Made by a program: the position numbers and the translations under genes. Below, one piece after another: positions 7,479 through 59,680 of a DNA stretch of 64,000 bases. Numbering within the stretch: the first letter of the stretch is position 1; every line of letters begins with the position of its first letter. The notes beneath the pieces are model-generated. The model saw nothing but the letters and a program-made list of their open reading frames with translations. It made no database searches and was not told where the DNA came from. Source of the stretch: a virus (taxonomy: Duplodnaviria > Heunggongvirae > Uroviricota > Caudoviricetes); the IMG/VR virus record IMGVR_UViG_3300029852_000006. One strand, given 5' to 3'.

Positions 7479-8669
7479 ATGGTTTACATCACTTATAACT
7501 GCCCGGAACGTTTCCGGGAAATGACGTTTGAAGAACTCCTCCGCGGGGATTTTAACCTCGCAAACCTTTCCACCGGCGGCCACGGTGCTACCCGTACCGT
7601 CATCTGCAACAAAGTTCCTCCCCGCATCATGCGCATCACCAAGGTGGAGCAAATGATCCTCCAGCTCCAGGCGTTCAACCAGCAGTATGAATCCCTTCGC
7701 CTCACCACTCCCCGTTCCAGCCTGTACAACCATTTCCCCATCCCCAAAGCCTCCGGCGGTCTCCGCTGGATCGATGCCCCCAATTCCGACTTAATGAAAG
7801 CCCTCAAGGAACTCAAAACCCTCTTTCAGTCCTGGATGTTTGCCGACCACCACACCTGCGCTTTCGCCTATGTCGAGGACCGCAGCGTCCTCTCCGCCGC
7901 CAAACGTCACCAAAAGTTCGGTGCCTGGTGGTTCGCCCACTTTGATTTCCATGGCTTCTTCCCCTCCACCACGCCGGAGTTTGTCCTCTCCCAGTTTGAA
8001 CTCATTTATCCTTTCAACCTCATCCTTGCCAGCCCCACCGGCCGCGCGGAACTGATCAAAGCCCTTGACCTCTGTTTCCTTAACGGAGCATTGCCGCAGG
8101 GCACCCCCATCTCCCCGCTCATCACCAACATCATGATGATCCCCTTTGACCACGCCTTCGCCAAGGCTGTCAACCATTTTGAATCCGGCAAGCATAACCC
8201 GGACGGAACCCCCATCACCGACCGCCTCTGCTACACCCGCTACGCCGATGATATCATCGTCTCCTGCAAAGTTATCTTCAATTTCCATGCTGTCGAGCGC
8301 CTTATTGTCCAGCTTCTCTCCCAAATGAACGCCCCCTTCACCCTCAATGAAAGCAAAACCCAGTTCCGCTCCCGCGCCGGCCGCAACTGGATTCTTGGCG
8401 TCATGCTCAATAAGGATAACCAAATTACAGTCGGCTACCGCAAAAATAAAATCTTCAAAGCCACCATTGATACCTACTTCCGCGATAAACAAAAGGGCAA
8501 AAAGTGGCCGGATGAAGACCTTCAGTCCTTCCAGGGCAACATTACCTGGTTCAAGGATGTCCAGCCCGATACCACCAAATACATTATCCAAAAGTATAAC
8601 GCCAAATATGGCCTTGACCTTGAATCCTGTATCAAGGCCGATCTCGCCCCGCCCAGCGTAACCGCATAA
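7479..8669 (+). CDS. reverse transcriptase (stand-alone; retron/DRT/Abi-like class undetermined)
   Basis: RT motifs 1 (IPKASGGLRWI), 2 (DFHGFFPS), 4 (LPQGTPISPLITNI), 5 (YTRYADDIIVS), 7 (LNESKT). RBS AAGGAG before ATG 7479 (six-frame ORF extends to 7335). No maturase or endonuclease domain. Confidence 0.85.
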   Translation: MVYITYNCPERFREMTFEELLRGDFNLANLSTGGHGATRTVICNKVPPRIMRITKVEQMILQLQAFNQQYESLRLTTPRSSLYNHFPIPKASGGLRWIDAPNSDLMKALKELKTLFQSWMFADHHTCAFAYVEDRSVLSAAKRHQKFGAWWFAHFDFHGFFPSTTPEFVLSQFELIYPFNLILASPTGRAELIKALDLCFLNGALPQGTPISPLITNIMMIPFDHAFAKAVNHFESGKHNPDGTPITDRLCYTRYADDIIVSCKVIFNFHAVERLIVQLLSQMNAPFTLNESKTQFRSRAGRNWILGVMLNKDNQITVGYRKNKIFKATIDTYFRDKQKGKKWPDEDLQSFQGNITWFKDVQPDTTKYIIQKYNAKYGLDLESCIKADLAPPSVTA

Positions 8670-12185: not shown

Positions 12186-13622
12186 ATGACTCAAAATCTT
12201 ACCCTTGTTACCCAAAAGCCTTTTGGCTCCCTCACCTGCAACGTCTACCAGGACGAAAACAATAAAAACGAATTCTACATGACAAGGCGTCAAATTGGTG
12301 AAGCACTAGGCTATGTAAAAGCTGATGATGCTATTTGGCAAATTCATGAGCGAAATAAAGATCGCCTTGACTCTTTTTCAGAAACCTCCGTTCTGGGGGT
12401 CGCTGAAGGAAATCGCACGGTACGCCGTGAAATTTGTGTATATACTTTGAGGGGGGTTATGGAAATCTGCCGTTTCTCCCGCCAGCCCAATGCGGATAAA
12501 TTCATGGACTTCGTATGGGACGTTATGGAATCCCTTTACTATGGCCGCAGCGTCCTCGCCACCCCAGACCAAACCTCCGCCGTCGCCATGCAAACCATCC
12601 AGGCTCTTGTTGATTCCACCCTCAAAACCCAGGCCGAAACCACCCGCTGCATGGTCACAATGACCACCACCCTCGCTGCCCTCGCCAACCATTTCACCGG
12701 TGCCGTTCCCGCTCAGCAGCCTGCCCCGCAACCCGTCACCGTCACCCCCAAGGATTATGCCGTCCACGATGACCCCGCCCCCAGTTCCAAAAACGAATCC
12801 ACCCCGGTACCCGCCCCGCAAAAGTCAAGTGTCCCTGTTACTGTAACTCCAAAATCTGCATCCGCCCCCGTTACCTGGCGTGATGAAGTCTACCAAACCA
12901 TGGATAAAATCATCCGCAATGCCCCGGAGCTTTACCCCTCCCGCCGCGATATCCTCAACCAGATCTACGCCAAAATGAAACGGGATTACGGCTTTGTCCA
13001 GGAGCAGGAGCGCATCAACTACCGCAAAGCCCATGCCTGCACCTCCTACCTCTCCACCATCCAAATCATCGGGGCCTCCACCACCTACCGCGAAATCTTT
13101 GATTCCATTTTGAACGATATCTATAACGATGCCATCATCAAGCACGTCCGCAAAAACGATTCCAACCCCAATTCTCAGCTCCCCCTCGGCGTCCAGCGGG
13201 AACTTGGCCTGATTAAAGATGAACCCTGTATTATCAAGTCCCCCACCACCGACCTTGATTCTCAGCCCGTCCCTGCTCCCCTCCCGGACGAACCCAAAAA
13301 CTATAAGCCCATCCCTTCTCAGTCCCTTCTCGATGAACGCGCTGCCGCCATCAATGCCGCCATCGCCAAAGCCGCTGCCATCTACCATGATACCTCCTGC
13401 AACTTCTCCGTCACCTACCGCAACGTCTATAAAAATATGAATACCGATTGGGACGAAGTTCACACCCAGTTCCGTGCCCGCTATCATCGCGGTGCCCAGC
13501 AGCTCAAAACCCTTGTCATGTACAGCGACGTCCTGTTTGATCGCTTCAATGCCGCCGTCAACACTTATATTAACGCCGCATCCAAGCCGGAAGTCGAATC
13601 CGCATCCAAGAAGGAGGCTTAA
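12186..13622 (+). CDS. phage antirepressor-like protein (Bro-N/ORF6N-type N-terminal domain)
   Basis: N-terminal block 'FGSLTCNVYQDENNKNEFYMTRRQIGEALGY...IHERNKDRL' typical of ORF6N/Bro-N antirepressor domains; RBS GAAAGGAAC before ATG 12186. The six-frame ORF start at 12030 overlaps the previous gene. Confidence 0.6.
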   Translation: MTQNLTLVTQKPFGSLTCNVYQDENNKNEFYMTRRQIGEALGYVKADDAIWQIHERNKDRLDSFSETSVLGVAEGNRTVRREICVYTLRGVMEICRFSRQPNADKFMDFVWDVMESLYYGRSVLATPDQTSAVAMQTIQALVDSTLKTQAETTRCMVTMTTTLAALANHFTGAVPAQQPAPQPVTVTPKDYAVHDDPAPSSKNESTPVPAPQKSSVPVTVTPKSASAPVTWRDEVYQTMDKIIRNAPELYPSRRDILNQIYAKMKRDYGFVQEQERINYRKAHACTSYLSTIQIIGASTTYREIFDSILNDIYNDAIIKHVRKNDSNPNSQLPLGVQRELGLIKDEPCIIKSPTTDLDSQPVPAPLPDEPKNYKPIPSQSLLDERAAAINAAIAKAAAIYHDTSCNFSVTYRNVYKNMNTDWDEVHTQFRARYHRGAQQLKTLVMYSDVLFDRFNAAVNTYINAASKPEVESASKKEA

Positions 13623-13624
13623 AT

Positions 13625-14230
13625 ATGTCTACCCTCACCATCCCCGTTCAAACCAAACAAACCCTCACCGGCACCTACGCCAAATCCGGCAATGATCTTT
13701 ATTTTATCTCCGAAGAACCCGACCTCTTTCCTCCCAACCCCCGCACGGATTGGGATTGTTACTCCACATTCTATATCGCCCCCAACCGTTATTTCTCCGG
13801 TGATATACCTGTCAGCGCTTTTGTCCCTGATGTCAAAGCCGGCATCGAACCTGAATACGTCAAACTCCCTATCTATGCCTACGTTCACTCCGCCATCGCT
13901 CTCTCCACCACGCCGTTCCATGATGATTTTGATTCCGGCCTTGCCGGTTTCGCCGTCTGCACCCGCCAGGACGTGGCCGACCTCGGCTACTCCACCCCGG
14001 ACTGGCGCTCCCATGCGGAGAACGTGATCAAAAGTGAGCTTGAACTCTATCAGCAGTACCTCAACGGCGAAGCAAAAGCTCTCACCCTCTATCAATATAA
14101 CCCCGATTCCAATGAGTGGGAAGTAAACAATTCCTGCGGCGGCTGCTATAACATCGAATCCGATCAGGATATGGTTGATGTCTTCTTTTCCAACGCCACC
14201 GCCCTCGACCACCCCGATTTTGAATCCTGA
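13625..14230 (+). CDS. hypothetical protein (201 aa)
   Basis: ORF with coupled start (TAAATATG). Confidence 0.5.
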   Translation: MSTLTIPVQTKQTLTGTYAKSGNDLYFISEEPDLFPPNPRTDWDCYSTFYIAPNRYFSGDIPVSAFVPDVKAGIEPEYVKLPIYAYVHSAIALSTTPFHDDFDSGLAGFAVCTRQDVADLGYSTPDWRSHAENVIKSELELYQQYLNGEAKALTLYQYNPDSNEWEVNNSCGGCYNIESDQDMVDVFFSNATALDHPDFES

Positions 14231-14265
14231 CCCCCCTACATACAAAAAAAAAGGAAGTTGATCTT

Positions 14266-14958
14266 ATGCTTTACACCGTCAACGGTCATGAATATTCTTC
14301 CGATTCCACCCCCAACCAAAAAATTCTCGACCAGCTCATCAACCGTGAAGTCTTCTGCAATATGAACCAGGAAATGGATTTTATCCTCTCTGCCCTCGCT
14401 TATGACGCTAGTATCCCGGAAGATTCTCCTTTCGATGAATCCGATTACGAATCCGCTATCTGTGATGCTTCCTCCCAAACCTGCTCCGAGTGCGGTAATT
14501 CCAGCTATTTTGATGAAGTTGACGTCACGGACCTCGATGATTCCAAATTCCAAAACCCGGATTATGATTCTGACGTCCCGGACACCGTGGACCCCTATAT
14601 CTGCCCCGTCTGCGGCCTCACCTATCCTACTCTCGCCCAAGCCCGTGCCTGCTGCGAGTCCGAAACTGTTCATGTCTGCCAGTGTTGCGGTGCTGTCTAC
14701 AGTGACGATGAATACGATGACCTCGATACCACCCCGCCCGAAATCTTTGAATGGTGGGCGGTCTCCAACTGGTTCGGTGAAAAGCTCAAAGCCCGCGGTG
14801 AAGTCGTTCTTGATTGCTGGGGCAAGTCCTACTGGGGTCGCCAGACCACCGGTCAGCCCATCTCTCTTGATTTCGTTATCGCTTCCATCGCCAAGGAAAT
14901 GCAAATCCTGGATGGCCAGCCCCATTCCTGGGCACCCAAACCCCAGTCCAATCAATGA
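14266..14958 (+). CDS. hypothetical Cys-rich (zinc-ribbon-like) protein
   Basis: Multiple CxxC pairs (CSECG, CPVCG, CQCCG); RBS AAAGGAAG. Confidence 0.5.
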   Translation: MLYTVNGHEYSSDSTPNQKILDQLINREVFCNMNQEMDFILSALAYDASIPEDSPFDESDYESAICDASSQTCSECGNSSYFDEVDVTDLDDSKFQNPDYDSDVPDTVDPYICPVCGLTYPTLAQARACCESETVHVCQCCGAVYSDDEYDDLDTTPPEIFEWWAVSNWFGEKLKARGEVVLDCWGKSYWGRQTTGQPISLDFVIASIAKEMQILDGQPHSWAPKPQSNQ

Positions 14959-16419: not shown

Positions 16420-16715
16420 TGAGTTCGTATTTTCCTCAAGTCGGTGATTTTGTTATGATCCGCCCCTGGGATGATATGGTAAAAGAGTTTGGCACTGATT
16501 CCTATGGGGATATCCCAACGCTTCCTGCCGCCATCTTTCAAAGTATGAAACAATATTGCGGTCATTTCTACACTGTTGAACGTGTAACCACTACCGCTGT
16601 TGGCTCCTGGTGCTCTTTTGCGGATGTAAACTATGATTTTCCTGTCTGTTCTCTTGTGTTGCCCGTCTTTGAATCCTCTCTCACCTTTGATGATCTTATG
16701 AAAGGAGCTTCCTAA
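16419..16715 (+). CDS. SFDDLLKG-family small protein, paralog 12/13
   Basis: 'GDFVMIRPWDDMVKEFG'; C-terminus ...LTFDDLMKGAS. Confidence 0.6.
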   Translation: MSSYFPQVGDFVMIRPWDDMVKEFGTDSYGDIPTLPAAIFQSMKQYCGHFYTVERVTTTAVGSWCSFADVNYDFPVCSLVLPVFESSLTFDDLMKGAS

Positions 16716-17050
16716 TGAATTTTAACCCTCGGCCCGGTGATACCGTCACCATCCGTACATGGGATGACATGGCAGAAGAATACGGTTTGAATGAAAGTGG
16801 TGGAATTAAAACTCCGTATATCACCATTTTGCAAGGTATGAAACAATTCTGCGGCTACTCTTACATTGTGAAAGATGTTTACAATACATCTGATAGACGA
16901 ATGTATTCTTTTTACGGTTTCCATTATATCTTCCCTATCTGTGCTCTTGCCAGTTATTCTCCCTCCCTGCAGTCCATTCCCATCCCGCAGTCCATTCCCA
17001 TTTCCTCCATCTCTTTTGATTCCCTCATCCAGCCTCTCACCACCCCCTGA
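16715..17050 (+). CDS. SFDDLLKG-family small protein, paralog 13/13
   Basis: 'GDTVTIRTWDDMAEEYG'; C-terminus ...ISFDSLIQPLTTP. Confidence 0.6.
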   Translation: MNFNPRPGDTVTIRTWDDMAEEYGLNESGGIKTPYITILQGMKQFCGYSYIVKDVYNTSDRRMYSFYGFHYIFPICALASYSPSLQSIPIPQSIPISSISFDSLIQPLTTP

Positions 17051-17063
17051 AAGGACCGCCCCA

Positions 17064-17504
17064 ATGAAACAATTTTTCCAAACTGACCCGGACACCCGCC
17101 AGTTCTGCCGTGCGCTCTCTCCCACTACATACCAGTTCACTGATATCGTTCCTTTTCACTCCAAATCGGCTTCTCCTAACCGCAATTATTATGCCGTTGC
17201 CGCCGAAACGATCGACCTCTCTGCCTATACCATTCGCCAGCTGGAACAAGCCGTTGAACCTTATTACTGTTCTCTGCGCGGTCTTGTTGCCGCCTATGGT
17301 TCTGATACCACCTTGCCGGAAATTCTGCAAATCATCGCGGAATGTGTCTTTGAAAACATCGAAACCCCAAAACTTGTTTCCCCCGCTGCTGATTATCCCC
17401 GTGTTGTCTCCTACCAACGCCAGTGGATCTCCCGTCAGGAATCTACCCCCGGCCTTCCCAAAACGATGTTCAAATCCCTTACCGATTCCGCCGCCGCATC
17501 TTAA
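17064..17504 (+). CDS. hypothetical protein
   Basis: RBS GAAAGGAC before ATG 17064 (six-frame ORF extends upstream). Confidence 0.45.
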   Translation: MKQFFQTDPDTRQFCRALSPTTYQFTDIVPFHSKSASPNRNYYAVAAETIDLSAYTIRQLEQAVEPYYCSLRGLVAAYGSDTTLPEILQIIAECVFENIETPKLVSPAADYPRVVSYQRQWISRQESTPGLPKTMFKSLTDSAAAS

Positions 17505-17517
17505 AGGAGATGATTCC

Positions 17518-17919
17518 ATGTCCTACTTTACCCGCTACACTCTCGATGTCTTCCGCGATGATACCCCCGCTTTTATCCCGGAACCCACCCGCCGTGCCAT
17601 CCAGCATGAACTCCAAACCCTTTACGCCGATGCTTCCCCTTGCCTCAGACCCTTCGATCCTTCCGCCTATTTTTATGATGACGAGAACGATATCCTCACC
17701 TTCGACCCCGAAAACGAATGTCCGTTCGATGTCGCCAACGATATGATTAAACTCTCCCGCTCCTTCCCTTCCCTCACCTTCCGCATTACCTCCAAAGGCG
17801 AATGTGACGATGACTACTGGCGTCAGTATTTTGTCAATGGCAAAACCTGTACCTGCCCCGGCAAAATCGAAATCACTTACGCCCCCTATAATCCCCGCAA
17901 CCTCGAAGCCCCGTACTGA
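17518..17919 (+). CDS. hypothetical protein
   Basis: RBS AAAGGAGA before ATG 17518. Confidence 0.45.
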   Translation: MSYFTRYTLDVFRDDTPAFIPEPTRRAIQHELQTLYADASPCLRPFDPSAYFYDDENDILTFDPENECPFDVANDMIKLSRSFPSLTFRITSKGECDDDYWRQYFVNGKTCTCPGKIEITYAPYNPRNLEAPY

Positions 17920-18014
17920 TAACCGTACCACTTCCCATTTTTGTAATATTTTCCACCACCTCGTTTTACTTTTAACATTGTTCTATAACAAAAATCAAAA
18001 GGAGTTACATAATT

Positions 18015-19151
18015 ATGAAAATCGTCAACACCGGCATCAAGTACCAGATCTACAATGATTCCCTTCGCACCTTCGATTTCCTGCCCGCCGCCACCTACTG
18101 CGTCCGTTTCTCCAAGCTCAGCGGCTTCTACCTGGAATCCCGCCCCAATATGCAGGTCAACGAAACGGTCTATGGCCCGCATGAATCCAAGGTCGAAAAA
18201 GTTATAGCGTCCTACAACGCTTTCCCGCGTTCTCTTGGCGTCATCCTCAGCGGCGCAAAAGGTATCGGCAAGTCCATGTTTGCCCGCCTGCTCTCCACCC
18301 GCGCCATCTCTGCCGGCTTGCCCGTCCTCATTGTCGATGAAGCCATCCCCGGCATCGCCTCCTACCTCGAATCCATCGACCAGGAAGTCATGATCCTCTT
18401 TGATGAATTCGATAAAACCTTCGCTCACCCCTCCGATGATGATAAAACCGATCCTCAGTCCACCATGCTCTCCCTGTTCGATGGCACCTCCAACGGCAAG
18501 CGCCTCTTCGTTGTCACCTGCAATGATCTCAAAGGTCTCAATGATTTCCTTGTCAACCGTCCCGGCCGCTTCCACTACCACTTCCGCTTCGATTACCCCA
18601 CCGCCGATGAAATCCGCACCTACATGCAGGATAAGCTCAAGCCGGAATATTATGACCAGATCGATGCCGTCATCGGTTTTGCCGGTCGCGTTGACCTCAA
18701 TTATGACTGCCTGCGTTCCATCTCCTTTGAACTCAACACCGGCCTGCCTTTCACGGAAGCCATCAAGGATCTGAACATTGTCAACCTCAACGCTGAGCGC
18801 TATAACATCACCATGAAATTCGCAAACGGTATTGTCTATACCGCCAGCAATGTCCGCCGTGATCTCTTTGACCCCTCCTCGGAAGAATACGTTCGCTTCT
18901 TTAACAAAAACGGCGATTTTATCTTCGAAGTCACCTACAACAATGATTCCGTTCAGTTCGATAAAACCTCCGGTACTCCCTTTGTTGAAGGCAAGGACCT
19001 CACATTTGAATACCGCCACATCTCCGATGATGAACTCTCTGACCCGGATGAAAAGGCTTGCTATGACGCCATCACCCAGATCAAATCCACCACTCCCGCC
19101 GCTCTCGCCTTCCGCCGCACTCGCTCCCGCGATATCCACTACGCCGTCTAA
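18015..19151 (+). CDS. AAA+ family ATPase
   Basis: Walker A 'GAKGIGKS', Walker B 'ILFDEFD', sensor/arginine region 'VVTCNDL...NRPGRFH'. Confidence 0.7.
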   Translation: MKIVNTGIKYQIYNDSLRTFDFLPAATYCVRFSKLSGFYLESRPNMQVNETVYGPHESKVEKVIASYNAFPRSLGVILSGAKGIGKSMFARLLSTRAISAGLPVLIVDEAIPGIASYLESIDQEVMILFDEFDKTFAHPSDDDKTDPQSTMLSLFDGTSNGKRLFVVTCNDLKGLNDFLVNRPGRFHYHFRFDYPTADEIRTYMQDKLKPEYYDQIDAVIGFAGRVDLNYDCLRSISFELNTGLPFTEAIKDLNIVNLNAERYNITMKFANGIVYTASNVRRDLFDPSSEEYVRFFNKNGDFIFEVTYNNDSVQFDKTSGTPFVEGKDLTFEYRHISDDELSDPDEKACYDAITQIKSTTPAALAFRRTRSRDIHYAV

Positions 19152-19163
19152 GGGGGTTGTCCC

Positions 19164-20147
19164 ATGTCCGCCACAAATCCGCTTTACGATGAAGAGCTTC
19201 ACTGCCGTCACTGCGCTTATCATGGCATCAAATGTAAGCGTGCCAATAACATCACTGTCAATCTTGTTTCGAATTGCGCCCATCTTCACTACGGTTCCTA
19301 TCAGGGCATTTGTTCTGATTTTGCTCCCAATCCCAATTACCCGTTCTACTTCAAAAACTGGACAAGCTTCCAGGATTATTTTGATCACGCCGCCCCGGAT
19401 ATCCCCCGTCCCAACCTGGCCGACCAAACTGCCGCCGCTGTTTTCTGTTTCAATGGCGATCGCAGCATTCTTTACTTTGTCAGCCAGAACGATTTTATCT
19501 TCGGCAACCTCTATCAGGATGGTAAGCTCCGCACCGTCTATCGCCAGGTCAAAACCAAAAACATTCATTCTTCGTCCGGCTATTCCTATCCAACCGAAGC
19601 CTGTGATTTCATTCCTCTGCCCCAAGGTGCATCCGTTCCGCTGGAAGCTGTCTTCACCACCCAGCCCGCCTATCCGCCTTTAATCTACACCCCGCCTCTT
19701 ACCCCGGAACAGGATTGTCCTTACCCCTATGATGAAACTTTTACCCCAAAAGTATGGGAAGGCAATGATTTCATGCCGCCGCCCACCGTCTGCCCCTGGG
19801 GTTCCAACGTCCACCGCTGGCTCTCTTATTTTGGCGAAGGCTACACCTCAGCAAAGGATGATTCTCCCCTCGATCTCTACTGTTCTCCGTCCGCTGGCAT
19901 CCGCCTGCAAGTTACTGGTCCCTACTTCTACTTAACGGAAACTCACCCCGGTGCCGAGCTTCTTTTTACCAACAATGAATCCCATCGCAACTTTCTGGCT
20001 CAAGCCTGCACTCTTGCCCACCGCGATATGCCCAGGGACCGTGCCCTGCAACTCCTCTCCCGCACAAAACCGGATTGCAAACTCTGGCAGATTTTGCGTG
20101 CTCACTGCCTGCCCCTTGCCCAGTCCGCCTATGATTTCACCCAATAA
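19164..20147 (+). CDS. hypothetical Cys-rich protein
   Basis: N-terminal CxxC...C.C cluster; IS-like element inserted immediately downstream of its stop. Confidence 0.5.
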   Translation: MSATNPLYDEELHCRHCAYHGIKCKRANNITVNLVSNCAHLHYGSYQGICSDFAPNPNYPFYFKNWTSFQDYFDHAAPDIPRPNLADQTAAAVFCFNGDRSILYFVSQNDFIFGNLYQDGKLRTVYRQVKTKNIHSSSGYSYPTEACDFIPLPQGASVPLEAVFTTQPAYPPLIYTPPLTPEQDCPYPYDETFTPKVWEGNDFMPPPTVCPWGSNVHRWLSYFGEGYTSAKDDSPLDLYCSPSAGIRLQVTGPYFYLTETHPGAELLFTNNESHRNFLAQACTLAHRDMPRDRALQLLSRTKPDCKLWQILRAHCLPLAQSAYDFTQ

Positions 20148-20150
20148 ATC

Positions 20151-20367
20151 GGGTATTTGCAAAAATAGGTGGTTTGAATAAAACCATCTGTTTTTACAAA
20201 TACCACAGGCATTTGGATGTTTGTTGCGCCTATCGATTTTCCCAGTTGATAGCTCCGCACGAGTGGCATTGTCTCGTACAATACCGCTCACAGCAAACAC
20301 CCAGCCAAGGGAAACACAACCTCCTGTTTCAGCAGGAGAGACTTACAGTAAAAGGAGGGTAGCGTAT
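20151..20367 (+). ncRNA. candidate omega-RNA of IscB-1
   Basis: Conserved position of the guide/scaffold RNA immediately 5' of iscB; inferred from family knowledge, not folded here. Confidence 0.35.
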
Positions 20368-21906
20368 ATGCCTACTGTATATGTGTTAAACAAAGATGGT
20401 AAACCTTTGATGCCAACGACTCGCTGTATGCATGTGCGCCATCTCCTTAAGAATGGAAAAGCACGAGTCGTAAAATCAAAACCGTTTACTATCCAGTTGC
20501 TTTATGAAACTGATGATGTAGTTCAACCCCTATATTTGGGTATCGACCCTGGTAGGACCAACATCGGCGTTGCCGTTGTCAAAGCAGACGGGGCGGCGGT
20601 CTTTACTGCGCATCTTGAGACCCGCAATAAGGAAGTCCCTAAGCTGATGAAAAAGCGTAAGGAATCACGCTGCGCAAGACGCACCAACGGCAGACGCTGC
20701 CGCCGTCAGCGGAGAGCAAAAACCAACGGCACTATTTCTAAGAAGTGCGTAAAGCAAACCACTGCTCAAAATGGTAGTGTTAGTAAACGTGCAAAAGAAA
20801 TTGGCGTTATCAAGCGCCATCTTCCGGGTTGTGAGAAAGATGTACTTTGCATTGGTATCAAAAACAAAGAGGCAAAGTTCACCAATCGTGCAAGACCGGA
20901 AGGATGGCTTACGCCTACTGCAAATCAGTTGCTACAGACACACATCAACTTGGTGAAGAAAATTCAGAAGTTTCTTCCTATCAGTGATGTTGTGCTTGAA
21001 GTCAACAAATTTGCGTTCATGCAGCTTGACAACCCTAACATTCAGAAATGGCAGTATCAGCAAGGCCCACTCTACCAAAAAGGGAGCCTTGAAAATGCTG
21101 TTTCTGAAATGCAGGAACACCATTGCCTATTTTGTGAGAAGCCCATTGAACATTACCATCATGTAGTACCAAAATCCGAAAACGGTAGCAACACTATCGC
21201 CAATATTGTTGGTCTATGCACGGAGCATCACAATCTCGTTCATAAGGATGCTACCTGGCAAAAGAAACTCGCCAAAGAAAAAGTCGGACTCGTCAAAAAG
21301 TACAGTGCTTTGAGCGTATTGAATCAAATCATTCCGGCATTGACGAAAGAGATGAATTCTCTTTTTCCGAAGCATTTCTTTGTGACCAATGGTAAAAGTA
21401 CCTACGACTATCGTACAGCGCACGGTGTGAGTAAAGACCATTGGCTTGATGCTTATTGCATTGCCTGTTCTGTTTTACCCAACGATGTTTGTGATAGCAA
21501 TATAAACAGCCATGTGCCATACGAATTAAAGCAGTTCCGCCGCCATGATAGAAGAGTGCTACACAAAGCGAACATGAGCCGCGTGTACACACTCAATGGC
21601 AAAACAGTGGCAACGAATCGCCACAAGGCTATTAAACAGACTACCGACAGTTTGGAAGAGTTTCGTCAAAGCCATCCAGGTGATGTTTGCAAGCTCAAGG
21701 TGAAAGAGCATCATCCTGCATATAGAAACTTGAACCGTAACTATCCAGGAAGTGTATTTCTTGTTGACGGGCAAGTTCATGTGATGCAAGGAGTTAGCGG
21801 CTCACATAATGGCAAAGCAGATGGATATTACAATACGAATGGCAACGCATATCCATATTATAAATGTAAATTTGTTGTCAAAAACGAAGGAATTGTATTT
21901 GCATAA
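20368..21906 (+). CDS. iscB: IscB (OMEGA RNA-guided nuclease, Cas9 ancestor)
   Basis: N-terminal PLMP motif (GKPLMPT), RuvC-I 'LGIDPGRTNIGVAVV', HNH 'CLFCEKPIEHYHHVVPKSENGSNTIANIVGLCTEHH', RuvC-III 'HWLDAYCIA'. RBS AAAGGAGGG before ATG 20368. Confidence 0.8.
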   Translation: MPTVYVLNKDGKPLMPTTRCMHVRHLLKNGKARVVKSKPFTIQLLYETDDVVQPLYLGIDPGRTNIGVAVVKADGAAVFTAHLETRNKEVPKLMKKRKESRCARRTNGRRCRRQRRAKTNGTISKKCVKQTTAQNGSVSKRAKEIGVIKRHLPGCEKDVLCIGIKNKEAKFTNRARPEGWLTPTANQLLQTHINLVKKIQKFLPISDVVLEVNKFAFMQLDNPNIQKWQYQQGPLYQKGSLENAVSEMQEHHCLFCEKPIEHYHHVVPKSENGSNTIANIVGLCTEHHNLVHKDATWQKKLAKEKVGLVKKYSALSVLNQIIPALTKEMNSLFPKHFFVTNGKSTYDYRTAHGVSKDHWLDAYCIACSVLPNDVCDSNINSHVPYELKQFRRHDRRVLHKANMSRVYTLNGKTVATNRHKAIKQTTDSLEEFRQSHPGDVCKLKVKEHHPAYRNLNRNYPGSVFLVDGQVHVMQGVSGSHNGKADGYYNTNGNAYPYYKCKFVVKNEGIVFA

Positions 21907-21990
21907 ATTAGTAGACCACCTATTTTCAAATAGAAAATCACCTAATTTTGCAAATACCCAAATCCAACAAGGAGCTGACCCACTCCCTTC

Positions 21991-22197
21991 ATGTCTTCCC
22001 GTCTTGATCCTCTTGCCCGCAATTATTATCGCCGCAACAACTACCGGCAAACAGCCGGCTACCCCAAGCGTGAATGGACGACCGAGGAAATGAATCTTAT
22101 CCTCGTCCACTCCATCCCCGACCGTCAGCTTTCTGCCCGTCTTCAGCGCAGCGTCCAGTCCATCCAGGTCATGCGCTGCCGTCTTCGTTCCAAATAG
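21991..22197 (+). CDS. small putative DNA-binding protein (Myb/sigma-region-4-like helix pattern)
   Basis: 'WTTEEMNLIL...LSARLQRSVQSIQVMRCRL' helix-turn-helix-like pattern; weak. Confidence 0.3.
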   Translation: MSSRLDPLARNYYRRNNYRQTAGYPKREWTTEEMNLILVHSIPDRQLSARLQRSVQSIQVMRCRLRSK

Positions 22198-22231
22198 ATT
22201 TCAATTTTCAAAATCCAAGGAGGTAACAATT

Positions 22232-22615
22232 ATGTTAGGTGGTTTTGGTTTAATTCTCGGTATCGCTGGTTTGTTCGGTTCTGCCGCTGCAGCTGGTTAC
22301 ACATCCAATGATATTAAAGATTTTAATGCCCTCGGTGCCTATCAGCGCTCCATCTCAGAACCCACCCCGGAAGAAAAAGCCATCTATGAAAAATGGCGCG
22401 GCAAAACGTTTAATCAGCGGCATGAAGCTTTTTCAATGCTTGCAGGGGAACATCACGTTGATTGTGCCGATGCCAAACGTATCTGGTGGCAGCATATCTT
22501 CGAGGATGAAAAAGTTGAGGTCAATCCCAACTATCTCGACCGTATCAGCGGCGTGCATGATCGCGCTCTGACCTATAAGGCAGAACAAATCGGCAAAAAG
22601 CGCCGCGGCTGGTAA
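22232..22615 (+). CDS. small membrane-anchored protein
   Basis: N-terminal TM 'LGGFGLILGIAGLFGSAAAAG'; RBS AAGGAGG. Confidence 0.45.
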   Translation: MLGGFGLILGIAGLFGSAAAAGYTSNDIKDFNALGAYQRSISEPTPEEKAIYEKWRGKTFNQRHEAFSMLAGEHHVDCADAKRIWWQHIFEDEKVEVNPNYLDRISGVHDRALTYKAEQIGKKRRGW

Positions 22616-22630
22616 GGCAGGTGAATCCTT

Positions 22631-23041
22631 ATGCCCATCAAATTTCTTCTCCTCCTCTTTATGTTTTTCTCCCACCTCATTGCCGATTACAATCTTCAGG
22701 GCATCCTCGCCGATCTCAAGCAGCGTTTGTGGTGGGACCTCAAGTACTCCAAGGTGTTCGTTCAGGAACACTATCCTGTTGATTACATCACCGCCCTCAT
22801 CGAACATTCCTTCATGTGGTCAACCTGCATTACGATCCCGCTTCTGGTTTACTCTCTGTTCTTCCCCTATAACCCCCATGCAATCGCCTATTTCTGTTCC
22901 TCCATTCTTACTAATACCGGTTTTCATGCTATTATTGACCACCAAAAAGCAAACGAAGGTTCTATCTCTCTTACCACCGACCGGCTCCTTCATACCGGTC
23001 AAATCTTTTTTACCTGGCTGTTCTTCGTTTTGTCCTATTAA
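22631..23041 (+). CDS. integral membrane protein
   Basis: Three or more hydrophobic segments. Confidence 0.45.
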   Translation: MPIKFLLLLFMFFSHLIADYNLQGILADLKQRLWWDLKYSKVFVQEHYPVDYITALIEHSFMWSTCITIPLLVYSLFFPYNPHAIAYFCSSILTNTGFHAIIDHQKANEGSISLTTDRLLHTGQIFFTWLFFVLSY

Positions 23042-23105
23042 AAAAAATAAAAACCAGGGTCGCAAAACCCTGGCGTACATCCTCCCATTCAAAGGAGCGT
23101 TGCTT

Positions 23106-23672
23106 ATGAATTCTATCCCTCAGTCCTCCCAACAGCTTGTTGAACTGCTCAAATCCAAATCTCTTCACATCTCTGCTGCCGTAAGCTGCACCGCCGGCCT
23201 CTTCTCTTCCTCTCTCGCCAGCATCCCCGGCGCATCCAGCGTCATGGAGTATGGCTTTGTCACCTACTCTGCCGCTGCCAAAATGAACCTTGTCTCTGTC
23301 AAACCGGACACCATCAAGAATTACACTGTTTATTCCGGTCCTGTCGCCGCCCAAATGGCAATCGGCGCAGCTCAAAAATCTGGCGCAGAGCTTGGCGTTG
23401 GCATCACCGGCATTGCAGGTCCTCATGCAGAATCTCAGCCTGCCGGCACTGTCTATATCGCCGTGGCCAATTCGGAGATTCAAAATGTTTTCGTCCGCCG
23501 CTATCTTTTTCAGGATCACGACCGCAACATCATCCGCCAAAAAGCCGTCCTTGCTGCCATGGATCTTGTCACCGCCGTCATCACTTCCACCGGCCGCCAG
23601 CCCCACTTTGCCTGGTCTTGCAGCTCTGCTATCATCCATACCGTAACCGAATCCAAAACCCACTCATTCTAA
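23106..23672 (+). CDS. CinA C-terminal domain / PncC-like NMN deamidase
   Basis: 'ISAAVSCTAGL...SSVMEYGFVTYSAAAK...ELGVGITGIAGP...GTVYIA' matches the CinA-C/PncC family. RBS AAAGGAG before ATG 23106 (six-frame ORF extends upstream to 22680). Confidence 0.6.
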   Translation: MNSIPQSSQQLVELLKSKSLHISAAVSCTAGLFSSSLASIPGASSVMEYGFVTYSAAAKMNLVSVKPDTIKNYTVYSGPVAAQMAIGAAQKSGAELGVGITGIAGPHAESQPAGTVYIAVANSEIQNVFVRRYLFQDHDRNIIRQKAVLAAMDLVTAVITSTGRQPHFAWSCSSAIIHTVTESKTHSF

Positions 23673-23701
23673 TCACTATATAATAAGGTAGGTAATTTGC
23701 T

Positions 23702-23977
23702 ATGAATAGAGAACGCCGCTCCAGAATTCGCAGTCTTATCAAGGCTTTCAAGGATCTCTCCTCCACCATCCAGGACGATCTTTCCTCCCAGGTTCAAGAC
23801 CTGCATGATCTTGAGGAAGAAGCCTTCGATAATATGCCGGAGTCTATGCAGGATTCCGACCGCGGCATCGCCATGCAGGATGCCATGGATGAACTTCAGT
23901 CCGCTGTTGATCTCTGTTCCGAAGCCTCCGATGCCATTTATTCTATCGTGGATTCTTTACAGTCCGCTGCAGGATGA
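23702..23977 (+). CDS. small acidic hypothetical protein
   Basis: ORF with strongly acidic composition. Confidence 0.4.
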   Translation: MNRERRSRIRSLIKAFKDLSSTIQDDLSSQVQDLHDLEEEAFDNMPESMQDSDRGIAMQDAMDELQSAVDLCSEASDAIYSIVDSLQSAAG

Positions 23978-24195
23978 TTTTCCCTCCCCATCAGGTAGTC
24001 TACTGTGCAGTGCATCTCGTCCGCCAATACACCCAGCGCCCAAAACCCTGGGTAATTGATTCCGTTCTCCCACCCCATCACGGTGTGGGTTCCGCATCGC
24101 AGTCGCTCTGCCAGTTCCCGCTGGCTTATCCCGTTTGCCTTGCGCCACTCTCGTATAATTTGCCCAATCTCCATATTTTCGTGTCCTCTTTTCAA
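23938..24195 (-). CDS. XRE-family HTH transcriptional regulator (Cro/CI-like)
   Basis: 'IREWRKANGISQRELAERLRCGTHTVMGWENG' classic XRE HTH; divergent from + strand genes, sharing a promoter region (24196-24344) with an extended -10 TGTGCTATACT. Confidence 0.7.
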   Translation of the reverse strand: MKRGHENMEIGQIIREWRKANGISQRELAERLRCGTHTVMGWENGINYPGFWALGVLADEMHCTVDYLMGRENHPAADCKESTIE

Positions 24196-24344
24196 TGTTA
24201 GTACAGGTTTCCGTTCTAGTATCTTGAATTCCTTTGTGCTATACTCGCATTATACAACAAATGGTTGTCAATTACAACTATTGGGATTAAATTCTCACCA
24301 TTTTCCAGTCCATCTTTTCGGACGTCAATGAATAAGGAGGAGCC

Positions 24345-24680
24345 ATGAACACACAAACTATCACCCTTGCCCAGCTTGCCACCGCCTGCCAAAACGCAGC
24401 CTACATCAATGTCCACCTCTACACCCCGGCCATGTCTTCCCTCTCCACCTTCAAGCCAGATCAAATCCGCTTCATGTCCGCCTCCACCGGCGTCCCGCTG
24501 CTTCGCTTCCAAAGCAAAACCAGCACAATCGTCCTGCAGGCTCTCAGCATTCAGGCCGCCGTCACCCCCAGCACCCCCGGCAACGAGATCCCTTTTGGCC
24601 GTTGTACCTACTCCTACACCACTTATGATTTCGCCTTAGATGGTGTAAATTATTCCGTAAATATTTTTCAAAAATCTTGA
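24345..24680 (+). CDS. hypothetical protein (111 aa)
   Basis: RBS AAGGAGGAG. Confidence 0.45.
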   Translation: MNTQTITLAQLATACQNAAYINVHLYTPAMSSLSTFKPDQIRFMSASTGVPLLRFQSKTSTIVLQALSIQAAVTPSTPGNEIPFGRCTYSYTTYDFALDGVNYSVNIFQKS

Positions 24681-24764
24681 ATTTTACTGTTGACTTCTTG
24701 TAAGTAACGTGGTATGATAATATCACAAGGTAAGCAATAAATAAGTAAAGGAGGTTTCCCCGCT

Positions 24765-25184
24765 ATGTTCAAACCCAGTACCTCGGTTCCCAAATTTGGC
24801 GAAATCCGGCTGGGCTGTGCTCCGCAAGACCATGCCCTGCTCGGTACGCACAAGTACGTTGGTATTCATCCCTATCTGGTCGTCAGCAATGATGTTTATA
24901 ACAAATTCAGCGGCCAGTGTGATGTCATCCCCTTCACCACCAAGCGCTTTGCAAGTGCCAGTCCAACGCATGTTGATTACCCAGCCGGTTCCATCCGCGG
25001 CCTAACGCGGGATTCTACCCTCGTGGTCGAAGCGCGGGATACCCTCCTGAACTCTCAGCTTGGTGAACCGATTGCCCGCTTCTCGGATGAAAACTGGCAG
25101 CGGGCCAAAAAAGCTTTCCTCACTCAAAATCCATTCCTTACCCGCTGGATCATCCCGGAACCCCGCCCAACACCGGTTGCATAG
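24765..25184 (+). CDS. MazF/PemK/EndoA-family endoribonuclease toxin-like protein
   Basis: Aligns by eye to B. subtilis EndoA: 'GIHPYLVVSNDVYNKFSGQCDVIPFTT...SPTHVDYPAGSIRGLTRDSTLVVEARDT' vs 'RPVLVIQNDIGNRFSPTAIVAAIT...[27 protein letters not shown]'. Preceded by strong promoter TTGACT-17-TATGATAAT. Confidence 0.75.
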   Translation: MFKPSTSVPKFGEIRLGCAPQDHALLGTHKYVGIHPYLVVSNDVYNKFSGQCDVIPFTTKRFASASPTHVDYPAGSIRGLTRDSTLVVEARDTLLNSQLGEPIARFSDENWQRAKKAFLTQNPFLTRWIIPEPRPTPVA

Positions 25185-27503: not shown

Positions 27504-27578
27504 GCGGCTGTCGTACAACGGCCAGTATACAAGCCTTCCAAGCTTGGGATGGGGGTTCGACACCCCTCAGCCGCTCCA
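27504..27578 (+). tRNA. tRNA-Gly (anticodon UCC)
   Basis: Hand-folded cloverleaf: acceptor gcggctg/cagccgc, D-stem gtac/gtat, anticodon stem caagc/gcttg with loop cuUCCaa, T-loop ttcgaca, encoded 3' CCA. Confidence 0.65.
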
Positions 27579-28050: not shown

Positions 28051-28835
28051 CCGTTCCGGTTCATACCGGGGCGTCATGGCTCCCAGCGCCGGTCAAGTCT
28101 GGGGTACGCGGAGGGCAATCTCTCCGTCAAATCAGTGGGTGAAATAAACTCGCTGGACGCTTTATTCTGGTCTAACCCCCAGATGCTAAAGCAATGGCAG
28201 AGCAGCGGCACACTGCCTCAAAACTATTCCGTTGGCACCTTCGGGCAGGTAACAGTCCACCTTGCCGGGTTCAAAGCCGTCTTTACGGCAGTCTTAACAC
28301 GCAGCACCCAGCATGAAACCGATCGGCAGAACTTTTGGTCAGCTTCCAAACATCTTTCTGGCCAATGACAAGATGGGAAAGTCCTCCGGGCTGCGGCGAG
28401 TAATAAGCAGCGGTAAGTACCTATCGACATATGGTGAGACGGCTAAGCACGTCACTGGTACCTCAAGGGTGGGATGCCCTTTCACACGGAGCAATACTCA
28501 AGCTGGTTTAAGAGGCGTCCCTGCTAAGGACGTAGCCAACAACCCCGCCTAAACCGGTCCTCCGGTTATAGATGGGATTTACGGGGAAACTCGTAAGTCC
28601 GGTTGGTTAGCCTAAGTCTGCTGCTCCGGCAACAGGAAACTACGTTGTGTACCAATAATATAGGCACCTTACTCATGCTCCACAAGTGGTAAGCTCTGCG
28701 GACGGCTCGTTAAACATCTCTGAGGGTAGGAGAAGTGCGAACGTCATGTCGAAAGGCTAAAACGGTATAACAACATTGGCGATGTGGACCACAGGGCGCA
28801 AGCCCTGACTTATTGATTTATTATTTACGAAAGGG
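28051..28835 (+). ncRNA. long ORF-free structured region between tRNA-Thr and iscB; expected location of the IscB-2 omega-RNA
   Basis: 785 nt with only short ORFs, GC-rich with many local hairpins; IscB omega-RNAs are encoded immediately 5' of iscB (family knowledge). Confidence 0.35.
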
Positions 28836-30242
28836 GTGCCTTGCATGAGCACTTGTGCTTGTGTTTTCAGTAAAAGCGGCAAACGCCTGATGCCGACCAT
28901 CCGTCTTGGCAAGGTGCGCCATCTTCTGAAAGACGGAAAGGCAAAAATTATTAAGCATCATCCGTTTACCATCCAGTTGCTGTATGACAGCGAAACGAAT
29001 ATTCAACCCATCGAAATCTGCGAGGATGTGGGTTACAACTACATTGGCATCAGCGTGAAAAGCCAATCTCACGAATATGTGTCTGTACAATATGATACAT
29101 TGCAGGATGAGAAAGACTGCCACGATAGTTGTCGTAAGATGCGCCGCATCCGTAGAAACAGGTTACGTTACCGCAAGCCGCGTTTCGACAATCGTAAGCG
29201 TAATAAAGGTTGGCTTGCGCCCTCTCTTGAACATAAGAAAGAACTCAATGTTAATGTCATCAAGATGTATTGCAAGGTAGTTCCTATTACGCATGTAACT
29301 GTTGAAGTTGGTTCTTTCGACACAATGCTTGTAAAAGCCATCCAAGAGGGTAAAGCTATACCGGAAGGCGCAGATTATCAAAAAGGCCCTCGCTACAATT
29401 TGGCCACACTACGTGAAGCGGTTTTTTATCGCGATAAATATACCTGCCAAGTTTGCGGGCGCAAGGCTAATGAAGGTGCAATTCTGCATGTGCATCACAT
29501 GTTCTACTGGAAGGGTCGTCACGGCAATAGTCTCAGCGAACTTCTTACTGTGTGTGAAAAATGCCATACACCGGCTAACCACCAACAAGGCGGCAAGCTC
29601 TACAGATTTGGTGAAAATATAAAGTTCGCCAATCTTTCCGGTGCGGCATTTATGAATACTGTGCGCTGGCAAATCGTCAATGAACTTTACACTGCTTTTG
29701 GCAAGCTGTTCGTCACATTCACTTATGGTGCGATGACCAAGGAAAAGCGGATTGCCTTTCATCTTGAAAAGTGTCATAACAACGATGCGTATGCAATGGG
29801 GAACTTTCATCCAGTTGACCGCTGCGCGTTTGAACATTATAAAAAGGTGAAACGCAATAACCGCATTCTCGAAAAATTTCATGACTCCCAGTACATTGAC
29901 ATCCGCACCGGCAAAGTGGCTAACGGCAGAAGCCTCTTTAACGGTAGAATCAACCGCAGCCATAAAAAGAATTCCGAGAACCTGCACAAGTATCGTGGGA
30001 AAAGGACTCGTAAAGGCTACCGTGCTCTACGCCGCAAAAAGGTAGCCCTCAATCCCGGTGACTTGGTTTCTCTTAACGGAGAAATTCTTGTTGTCCATAG
30101 CACTCATGCCGGAAAGAATGGTTATGTAGGCGTAGAATTCAAAGCTCCATCAAAAAGCGGCAAAAAGTCTGCCAGTCTCAAAAAACTAAAAATTGTTAAA
30201 ACATCAAACTCCATGCGCTCTGCGTGGACTAAAGTATCTTAA
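28836..30242 (+). CDS. iscB: IscB (OMEGA RNA-guided nuclease), second copy
   Basis: PLMP-like 'GKRLMPT', RuvC-I-like 'DVGYNYIGISV', HNH 'CQVCGRK...HVHHMFYWKGRHGN...CEKCH', RuvC-III 'HNNDAYAMGNF'; basic C-terminus. Confidence 0.8.
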   Translation: MPCMSTCACVFSKSGKRLMPTIRLGKVRHLLKDGKAKIIKHHPFTIQLLYDSETNIQPIEICEDVGYNYIGISVKSQSHEYVSVQYDTLQDEKDCHDSCRKMRRIRRNRLRYRKPRFDNRKRNKGWLAPSLEHKKELNVNVIKMYCKVVPITHVTVEVGSFDTMLVKAIQEGKAIPEGADYQKGPRYNLATLREAVFYRDKYTCQVCGRKANEGAILHVHHMFYWKGRHGNSLSELLTVCEKCHTPANHQQGGKLYRFGENIKFANLSGAAFMNTVRWQIVNELYTAFGKLFVTFTYGAMTKEKRIAFHLEKCHNNDAYAMGNFHPVDRCAFEHYKKVKRNNRILEKFHDSQYIDIRTGKVANGRSLFNGRINRSHKKNSENLHKYRGKRTRKGYRALRRKKVALNPGDLVSLNGEILVVHSTHAGKNGYVGVEFKAPSKSGKKSASLKKLKIVKTSNSMRSAWTKVS

Positions 30243-30336: not shown

Positions 30337-30429
30337 GCTCCCATATCTCAATGGTAGAGAAGCGGCCTTATAGCCCGCCTAGCACCAGATTAGTGCGTAA
30401 TCCCTGTTCAAGTCAGGGTGGGGGTACCA
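30337..30429 (+). tRNA. type-II (long variable arm) tRNA with atypical anticodon arm; identity uncertain
   Basis: Acceptor gctccca/tgggggt (two G-U), D-stem tctc/gaga, variable arm gcac/gtgc, T-arm ccctg-ttcaagt-caggg, 3' CCA. Anticodon stem has only 4 clean pairs around the sequence ccttatagc. Confidence 0.45.
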
Positions 30430-58669: not shown

Positions 58670-58670
58670 C

Positions 58671-59525: not shown

Positions 59526-59680
59526 ATACAGCCCTCCATGTAAAAGAACCAATTCTTTGTTGCTATTTTAATTTCATTATAACACATCAACACTCAAAGT
59601 CAACAAGCAAAAGAATCAGTTCTTTGTTGCTGTAATAAAGTTAAAAATAGGGGAGCCACCTCGTCAGCAGCTCCCCCTGG

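Follow-up and report, generated by a model that had tools for sequence, protein, structure and literature searches.

We analysed a 64,000-nucleotide (nt) window of the viral record IMGVR_UViG_3300029852_000006, in which a discrete 1,809-bp insertion occupies positions 20151-21959 of a gut phage genome. The insertion holds one gene, iscB (20368..21906, + strand), preceded by a 217-nt leader (20151..20367, + strand) that contains no convincing open reading frame (ORF) and forms a candidate omega-RNA scaffold. Terminal inverted repeats (TIRs) close both ends and abut copies of a target-site duplication. The first-pass annotation of this window had described a compact mobile unit of omega-RNA and IscB only, with no transposase, inserted exactly between gene 19164-20147 and the next small gene. 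ORF scans, exact boundaries and empty-site alleles bear out this description.

The iscB product is an intact relative of OgeuIscB. The 512-amino-acid protein, which begins MPTVYVLNKDGKPLMP, matched the Pfam families RRXRR (PF14239, E=1.7e-50, residues 4-233) and HNH (PF01844), and a search of solved structures aligned it end to end with OgeuIscB (PDB 7XHT/7UTN, E=1.3e-175) at 57% overall identity. The alignment retains the RuvC-I aspartate (LGIDPG), the RuvC-II glutamate (VVLEVN), the HNH histidine (HYHHVVP) and RuvC-III (KDHWLDAY). As the first-pass annotation had recognised, the ORF encodes a PLMP motif and a split RuvC domain, interrupted by HNH; it also encodes an arginine-rich bridge helix, and the RuvC and HNH catalytic residues are intact. 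Family 1 iscB genes show a ratio of nonsynonymous to synonymous substitution (dN/dS) of 0.06-0.08 at a synonymous divergence of 1.0-1.4 substitutions per site. Between families, the C-terminal region that interacts with the target-adjacent motif (TAM) is the most divergent, with 55-69% identity versus 80-96% elsewhere. The TAM-contacting loop of OgeuIscB falls within this region; it reads EGR in that protein and GSH/GSK here.

Close relatives of this protein are numerous and viral. Public assemblies contain an identical IscB in 1,248 blocks, and 158 stretches in IMG/VR encode relatives at 71-100% identity; copies of the element within the IscB clade studied turned up in viral contigs only. Among GenBank phages, megablast found no match for the element and tblastn found only relatives at <=34% identity.

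The leader has a constrained, covarying fold. It opens with a guide-adaptor hairpin (20152..20204) whose 24-bp stem has the left TIR as its 5' arm, continues through a nexus stem (20208-20210 with 20304-20306), a central stem, a hairpin at 20230-20252 and a variable hairpin (20261-20289), and ends in a terminal hairpin (20321..20338; CCUCCUG-UUUC-AGCAGGAGG; helix 8), all on the + strand. The loop of hairpin 20230-20252 holds UUUCCC (20238..20243, + strand), which pairs as a pseudoknot with GGGAAA (20309..20314, + strand) directly 3' of the nexus stem. The leader also carries the ribosome-binding site of iscB, AAAGGAGG. Across 20 non-identical family 1 leaders, mean column identity is 92%; set against the synonymous divergence of the iscB genes, this places the non-coding leader under strong constraint. 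RNAalifold predicted 64 pairs from the family 1 leaders, 7 of them with compensatory changes. Helix 1, the guide-adaptor helix, has 21 pairs, of which 4 carry compensatory changes. Many of its pairs are G:U in the + sense. When the pseudoknot is included, the resulting 68-pair structure keeps 98.7% of cells paired, versus 35-51% with slid partners, and contains 39 double-change cells versus 13 in shuffles (0/500 shuffles reach 39). G:U pairs are frequent in this structure, and in the + sense only, which points to RNA rather than to double-stranded DNA. The loop pairing UUUUCCC:GGGAAA covaries as well, becoming UUAACCC:GGGUUA in the family 3 loci L075-L079.

Comparison of leaders ties the window element to OgeuIscB. 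MAFFT misaligned the central RNA region across end families; motifs and nhmmer served for comparing one family with another. A family 1 leader profile found family 2 leaders at E=1e-20 to 1e-27, L142 at E=2e-9 and Ogeu-type leaders weakly, at E=1e-3 (L139) to 0.15, always just upstream of iscB. The guide-adaptor hairpin recurs with a different sequence in family 2 and Ogeu-type loci, and Ogeu-type leaders share the terminal hairpin, followed by ACUUA. Like the RNA in the OgeuIscB-omegaRNA structures (PDB 7XHT, 7UTN; PMC9640706), whose protein aligns over its full length with every catalytic motif, the window leader places the guide-adaptor hairpin right after the predicted guide and has a nexus stem, a terminal hairpin and a pseudoknot in which a C-rich hairpin loop pairs with a G-run that follows the nexus stem (C93-96:G155-158 there; PMC9640706). 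The two RNAs differ in the guide-adaptor stem, 24 bp in the window element versus 14 bp, and in the order of the inner hairpins.

By predicted structure and homology, the leader is an omega-RNA that falls outside the curated HEARO family. A noncoding omega-RNA leader of about 215 nt had been expected from the first-pass annotation, and that expectation held. Alignment to the HEARO covariance model, proposed alongside it, went the other way: Rfam RF02033 did not match the leader up to E=1 in a 3.1-kb query or up to E=10 in a 281-nt query, whereas it scored 83.4 bits at 28535-28794, where the window has another IscB gene directly downstream. The element nonetheless resembles HEARO RNA with IscB in its gene family, in the placement of the RNA upstream and in being polymorphic among sister phages.

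Empty sites in sister phages define the element's ends exactly. With the upstream flank gene 19164-20147 as query, IMG/VR yielded 29 loci, 11 of which are empty; there the flanks join directly, reading CCCAATAAATCCAACAAGG, and carry a single AAATCCAA. The boundaries set by this comparison, which the first-pass annotation had suggested, coincide with a left TIR at 20151..20175 (GGGTATTTGCAAAAATAGGTGGTTT) and a right TIR at 21935..21959 (AAATCACCTAATTTTGCAAATACCC). Together these form a 25-nt inverted repeat that is 92% complementary and reaches both tips, and its 13-mer core occurs within the window at these two ends only. The right copy of the duplication is the full 8 bp AAATCCAA (21960..21967), and the left copy is shortened to AAATC (20146..20150), having kept 5 of the 8 bp and lost the 3 bp CAA.

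The shortened duplication is one of two alleles. The window form, allele A, has the left junction ...AATAAATC/GGGTATT, in which CAA is absent and a 5-bp repeat remains. Allele B, found in L082, L089, L105, L106, L108, L127, L129, L130 and L132, reads ...AATAAATCCAA/GGGTATT...ATACCC/AAATCCAACAAGG and has a perfect 8-bp AAATCCAA duplication. Both are common across independent samples: the 13 filled loci in IMG/VR divide into 8 A and 5 B, and ten places read in public assemblies into 6 A and 4 B. One further locus, L102, keeps a 30-nt remnant of both tips between AAATCCAA and AAATCTAA.

The element also stands out in composition and folding. Its GC skew is about 0, versus -0.2 to -0.4 in its flanks. 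The left end alone folds into the 24-bp hairpin (-28.2 kcal/mol, z=-8.5). At the right end, a palindrome (21895..21957) overlaps the final iscB codons and folds less stably than the left (z=-6 to -7), more so on the minus strand (-23.4 kcal/mol) than on the plus strand (-17.4 kcal/mol). Searches for abutted ends, as in circle junctions or tandems, with the pattern AAATACCC-N(0-12)-GGGTATTT returned chance terminator-like palindromes only, and a BLAST of the left end against plasmids returned chance matches only.

Related elements occupy many other sites, each with its own duplication. Copies whose IscB is 82-87% identical sit at more than 12 different sites with perfect duplications, at <=3 copies per contig; IMGVR_UViG_3300045988_183639 holds three. 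At 11 further family 1 and family 2 sites the duplication is perfect over 8/8 bp and its sequence is unrelated among sites: AAATGTTG, ATTATCAC, CAAATAAG, AATAACAG, TCTAAACC, AAAATCTA, TTTATATG, ATTAAAAG, GCCGAAAT, ATGAGGTG and GCGTGAAC. For the L015 insertion, the predicted empty site with one AAATGTTG has an exact match in 19 viral stretches; for the L033 insertion, the predicted empty site is absent as an exact 25-mer. Empty sites thus establish target duplication at two independent loci, and it is deduced at about 15 more. The ends form three sequence families, in each of which the left repeat has its own matching right repeat: GGGTATTTGCAAAA.../...TTTTGCAAATACCC, GGGTATTTACGAAA.../...AATAATAAATACCC and GGGTATTGAAGAAT.../...CTTCAATAACC.

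This spread of sites bears on whether the element still moves. The element might have ceased to transpose and become a fixed, free-standing RNA-guided nuclease for homing or competition against co-infecting phages, its TIRs and duplication being relics of one old insertion. The insertion site is indeed the same in 13/13 filled IMG/VR loci and in 10/10 places read in other assemblies, the window copy has a damaged duplication, and remnant and chimeric copies exist. Against this stand the relatives at more than 12 sites with perfect duplications and <=3 copies per contig, and TIRs that co-vary and stay intact, implying continuing selection on the ends. We regard an immobile cassette as improbable.

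Loci without a matching duplication have chimeric flanks. In L071, for example, the left flank is that of L043 and the right flank that of L024; the IMG/VR loci L072, L039 and L040 likewise combine left and right flanks from different insertion sites, and L040 joins a family 1 left end to a family 2 right end. Judging by these junctions, phage genomes appear to be reshuffled by crossing over at the elements.

Composite forms with the same ends and no IscB occur too. L026 (6856-7765), and also L150-L153, consists of a left repeat with part of the hairpin, a 253-amino-acid phage gene and the right end, bounded by a perfect 8-bp duplication, AATAATTT, with no TAM-like motif after it. The same 253-amino-acid gene lies inside a gutted IscB element in L168-L170. 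We considered this ORF as a transposase and rejected it: it is an ordinary captured phage gene, and most of its 27 loci have no element end. Its position between element ends is thus attributed to capture through recombination.

Close relatives of OgeuIscB share this architecture. The OgeuIscB protein found no locus in IMG/VR; a protein database gave proteins 59-92% identical to it, and we examined their contigs. L136 (89% to OgeuIscB) has a perfect 22-bp TIR, GGCTCTTCCAACTTTATGGTTG, and the duplication TTTTTGAG followed by GAGGTA; L138, also at 89%, is like it in having a 22-bp TIR, an 8-bp duplication and NWRRNA directly after. The others are L140 (70%; TIR of the GGCTCTTCC type, duplication ACCTACCG, next 6 nt CAGGAA), L142 (71%; TIR GGGTATTTGCGAAAATAGGTGG, duplication GTTTAATA, then AAAGGG), L178 (59%; TIR of the GGGCTATTTAAG type, duplication TGCGCTCA, then AAGGAA) and L179 (72%; TIR of the GGGTATTTGTG type, duplication AGCGTTAA, then AAAGGA). 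No duplication was seen at L177. TIR length across the element and its relatives is 22-25 bp, and TIR sequence differs, starting GGGTATTT in the window element but GGCTCTTCC in loci of the Ogeu type. By our own count, numbering from the first G of GGCTCTTCC gives the published OgeuIscB scaffold numbering (A43, A45 and a G-run at about 155-158), so the published scaffold starts at the inverted-repeat tip.

These ends do not fit the superfamily to which IscB is usually assigned. Members of IS200/IS605, including ISC, lack TIRs and target duplications, use fixed 4-5-nt target motifs and rely on a Y1 transposase for movement (PMC4810608; PMC13565253). The first-pass annotation had called the element IS200/IS605-like and read its inverted ends as the subterminal hairpins of that superfamily. 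The inverted sequences and hairpins are real, but they are TIRs accompanied by a target duplication, and the IS200/IS605 label is contradicted by 25-bp TIRs, 8-bp duplications and single-copy empty sites at two independent loci. The element could still be a non-autonomous ISC-type unit moved as single-stranded DNA by a Y1 TnpA acting in trans: it encodes no transposase, both its ends can fold into hairpins, and IscB genes are generally placed in this superfamily (PMC4810608; PMC10691335). ISC elements resemble it in size (about 1.3-1.8 kb), in carrying IscB only, without a transposase, and in a guide derived from the flank, and differ in their fixed 4-bp motifs, Y1 transposase and absence of TIRs and duplications (PMC4810608). 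Yet the TIRs here run to the very tips, the 8-bp duplications are variable and unrelated at about 17 independent insertions, empty sites hold a single copy, and no fixed 4-5-nt motif adjoins an end. Scans of 30 window ORFs and of the surroundings of other loci found no Y1 (HUH) TnpA. We give the single-stranded route almost no weight.

The ends instead resemble those of the ISL3 family. Published ISL3 elements have 24-25-bp inverted repeats that start GGCTCTTCG or GGGTAT, and the family can carry passenger genes and mobilise MITEs, miniature transposable elements with inverted repeats (PMC6305408; PMC11448079; PMC7643977; PMC5559704). ISArsp7 has the repeat GGCTCTTCGCGGTTGGTGGTGAAT and an 8-bp direct repeat (PMC6305408); Microcystis ISL3 elements and a MITE have GGCTCTTCG ends and 8-nt repeats (PMC11448079); CLJ-ISL3 has the repeats GGGTATCCGGAATTTCTGGTTGAT and GGGTATACGGATTTAATGGTTGAT (PMC7643977); and an enterococcal fosB ISL3-like transposon has 25-bp inverted repeats, AT-rich 8-bp duplications and circular intermediates (PMC5559704). 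Circle junctions of published ISL3 elements have the form IR-5 bp-IR. The window element matches these in its AT-rich 8-bp duplication, in repeat length and in first bases (GGGTATTT, or GGCTCTTCC in the Ogeu type). Compared without gaps, the TIRs share 12-17/24 bases (50-70%) with the four published repeats; common stretches include the inner TTAATGGTTG (Ogeu type) and GGTGGTTTGAAT (window type), and gapped shuffle controls gave mixed results. On this likeness, with the left TIR resembling published ISL3 TIRs, the ends probably belong to the ISL3 family.

Several transposase families yield 8-bp duplications, and the same architecture and homing could be built on ends of another of them (for example IS1595, IS256, IS6/IS26 or IS1) or on those of an undescribed phage-borne enzyme. 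The TIR likeness of only 50-70% leaves room for this, as does the outcome of our transposase searches: no ISL3 transposase was found near the elements, and none of the ORFs scanned, inside the element or outside it, has a DDE_Tnp_ISL3 domain (PF01610). What tells against another family is the joint match to ISL3 of GGCTCTTC/GGGTAT termini, the inner TTAATGGTTG, 24-25-bp repeats and AT-rich 8-bp duplications. A non-ISL3 origin of the ends is in our view unlikely, although it is the alternative we take most seriously.

One set of proteins was weighed as a transposase candidate. In a 313-kb contig, multi-helix-turn-helix (HTH) paralogues adjoin the Ogeu-type IscB element of L140, and these proteins give a sub-threshold HTH_Tnp_ISL3 match (26.3 bits versus a cut-off of 27.4). 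The two paralogues, of about 385 amino acids (13226-14383 and 16640-17794), consist of HTH repeats (HTH_23, Myb, HTH_38 and others), not a DDE domain, and were rejected.

The geometry of the left end suggests that the insertion site itself supplies the guide. The first base of the omega-RNA scaffold is at once the insertion boundary and base 1 of the left repeat. This start leaves the 16 nt to the left of 20151, with the duplicated 8-mer at their end, in the guide position. This predicted guide segment (20135..20150, + strand; TTTCACCCAATAAATC, or CACCCAATAAATCCAA in allele B) is flank DNA that overlaps the 3' end of gene 19164-20147. OgeuIscB RNA carries its guide directly 5' of the guide-adaptor hairpin, with nt -8 to -1 as seed (PMC9640706). 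A guide drawn from the left flank had been anticipated in the first-pass annotation, and the scaffold start at 20151, predicted by likeness to the OgeuIscB RNA, agrees with it. The left end has no promoter-like site, and the upstream gene is co-directional with the element in every locus seen.

A TAM-like motif adjoins the duplication on the right. The sequence CAAGGA (21968..21973, + strand), which in the empty site lies directly 3' of the allele B guide match and overlaps the ribosome-binding site of gene 21991-22197, conforms to NWRRNA, the experimentally determined TAM of OgeuIscB (PMC12660989). Directly 3' of the duplication at 16 distinct family 1 sites, successive positions read A (12 sites), A (15), A (13), R (14) and G (13), giving AAARG, which often overlaps the Shine-Dalgarno sequence of the following gene. 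Fifteen family 2 sites give RCA in the same place (R in 15, C in 14, A in 15), and the left side of the insertions has no motif in either family. NWRRNA fits family 1 best at offset 0 (7/16 sites, the maximum over all offsets tested), and it occurs at offset 0 in 4/5 Ogeu-type loci (L136, L140, L178 and L179). Where the element is present, the sequence after the guide match is GGGTAT, and this is not TAM-like. Given a TAM-like motif after the guide match in one case and GGGTAT in the other, the ribonucleoprotein is predicted to cut empty genomes and spare occupied ones.

The abutment of motif and duplication raises the question of whether IscB takes part in integration. IscB is expected to cut 3 bp 5' of the TAM-like motif, which is where the allele A tip joins. 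The CAA missing from allele A corresponds to the bases between this expected cut and the motif, and its loss may be chance or a by-product of repair. IscB and its RNA could go further and choose or cut the target beside a TAM, with no separate transposase. In favour are the TAM-like motif beside the duplication at almost all sites, the failure of our searches to find a transposase, the equal length of the duplication (8 bp) and the guide seed (8 nt), and the position of the allele A junction at the expected cut site. However, the duplicated 8-mers are unrelated between sites and so are not specified by an existing guide, the composite with the same ends has a perfect duplication and no motif, and survival of home-capable insertions alone would explain the TAM pattern equally well. 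The idea also has no known precedent, and we find it barely credible. The unrelated 8-mers likewise rule out seed-guided off-target homing as the origin of new sites. We also note a bolder proposal: that the OgeuIscB lineage lies outside IS200/IS605 in phage-borne ISL3-like transposons, that its nuclease helps to create or select the TAM-adjacent site, and that the 5-bp allele is a trace of capture at a break made by IscB. We rate this combination as a long shot.

Near-identical elements in diverged flanks are the pattern that homing would explain. Among the 13 filled loci, elements diverge by 0.22%, whereas the 250 nt next to either end diverge by 3.4-3.9%, and flank divergence among filled loci equals that among empty ones. 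In the flank haplotype tree, filled and empty sites are interleaved, as are A and B alleles. The pattern fits recent copying of one element into diverged genomes, possibly through gene conversion that breaks induce and that covers very short tracts.

Our favoured reading, held with moderate confidence, is that the element is a non-autonomous ISL3-like transposon whose sole cargo is an OMEGA module and which spreads among co-infecting phages by IscB-guided homing. Read-through from the upstream phage gene would set the ~16 nt of flank that adjoin the left end before the scaffold as the guide, with the duplicated 8 bp as its seed. During co-infection, the IscB ribonucleoprotein would cut empty genomes, which present CAAGGA here and AAARG in the sub-family, and would leave its own locus, which presents GGGTAT. 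Repair of the break from an occupied genome would copy the element in. New sites would arise by transposition, with a transposase supplied in trans, probably an ISL3-family DDE enzyme.

Several observations weigh against this account. The likeness between the TIRs and ISL3 repeats is moderate and was measured on four published repeats, with gapped shuffle fractions that range from 0.001 to 0.6. No transposase was found in the element, among 30 window ORFs scanned, or up to 10 kb away in more than 10 other contigs, and 185,579 bacterial species genomes contain no close IscB relative. In allele A the guide and the TAM-like motif are 3 nt out of register, so that empty sites offer it CAACAA, and the two alleles are equally common despite this shift. 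Finally, the first 250 nt show no co-conversion gradient, and flanks are diverged within 20-40 nt of the junctions. With no co-conversion tract visible, homing looks the same here as frequent general recombination or repeated site-specific insertion.

The element combines features of several known systems. Like ISL3 members such as ISArsp7, the CLJ-ISL3/ISPpu12 group, the fosB transposon and the Microcystis MITE, it has 24-25-bp repeats starting GGCTCTTC or GGGTAT and AT-rich 8-bp duplications, and that family also includes cargo genes and derivatives mobilised in trans; it differs in having no DDE_Tnp_ISL3 in or near it, in a left repeat that doubles as the first strand of a guide-RNA helix, and in its occurrence in viral contigs only. 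An OMEGA nuclease within an inverted-repeat transposon is also known from TnpB in DDE (IS630-type) transposons and from Fanzor in eukaryotic transposons with TIRs and target-site duplications, but there the guide is at the 3' end, and no IscB case is listed (PMC10691335; PMC13565253). Free-standing phage homing endonucleases (T4 Seg and Mob; PMC13565253) are likewise nuclease genes between conserved genes, polymorphic for presence and absence, that are predicted to cleave the empty allele in co-infection and spread by repair; the window element differs in its predicted recognition by RNA guide and TAM and in transposon ends that would give it new sites and new guides.

Placing IscB in such transposons departs from current descriptions. 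All known OMEGA systems have been assigned to the IS200/IS605 superfamily (PMC10691335), and the presence of TnpA near only about 1.5% of iscB genes was noted without explanation (PMC10055086). In the searchable literature we found IscB nowhere described in inverted-repeat, duplication-making transposons, and recent reviews give such cases for TnpB and Fanzor only. Here, inverted-repeat elements with 8-bp duplications carry a whole IscB clade, among whose members are the nearest relatives of OgeuIscB, an enzyme used in genome editing. Two of its parts have dual roles: the left repeat is also a guide-RNA helix strand, and the target duplication is, we infer, also the guide seed. The loci provide natural guide/TAM pairs for many orthologues, and AAARG and RCA should be useful for TAM prediction. 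They also raise questions about the mobilising transposase, about IscB-driven homing between co-infecting phages and about the scaffold as omega-RNA versus transposase binding site.

Some relatives may have lost mobility. The family 3 copies L075-L079 (71-72% identity, 515 amino acids) keep the 3' half of the omega-RNA with its compensated pseudoknot. We found no inverted repeats at their ends and no guide-adaptor hairpin, and the upstream ORF seemingly enters the RNA region. This IscB copy may have been immobilised.

The window contains a second IscB system. Its gene (28836-30242) encodes a 468-amino-acid protein with RRXRR (E=6.9e-45) and HNH domains, and a HEARO RNA (RF02033) lies upstream at 28535-28794. 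The unit, 28535-30242, sits between a tRNA-Thr and a tRNA-Ile-like gene, and sister phages lack the segment from ~28536 to ~30332/30425, the left breakpoint being the 5' end of the HEARO RNA. ARAGORN called a 93-nt tRNA-Ile (anticodon tat) at 30337-30429, where the Rfam tRNA model was silent at its gathering threshold; tRNAs at 27504 and 27974 were found by both. Elsewhere, a 444-amino-acid ORF (7335-8669) has a reverse-transcriptase domain (RVT_1, E=9.5e-15), and at the gathering threshold Rfam found no group II intron or other RNA family in the whole window to accompany it.

The host genome combines phage and plasmid functions. From 17000 to 25000 and beyond, the window shows a strong and uniform strand bias, with GC skew of -0.2 to -0.4 on the coding strand. 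Long antisense ORFs such as 17886-19625 (- strand, 579 amino acids) are spurious products of this bias. A phage-type replication block encodes DnaB-like, PD-(D/E)XK, DNA polymerase III alpha, NrdD, ThyX and PhoH proteins, and plasmid-type genes on the - strand encode ParB_N (57476-58699), ParA/AAA_31 (58671-59552) and a Rep3 initiator (59681-61234). The first-pass annotation had proposed a phage or phage-plasmid host, in keeping with the IMG/VR viral contigs and with ParA, ParB and Rep3 in the window; the partition and Rep3 genes, taken with the replication block, suggest that the genome is a phage-plasmid.

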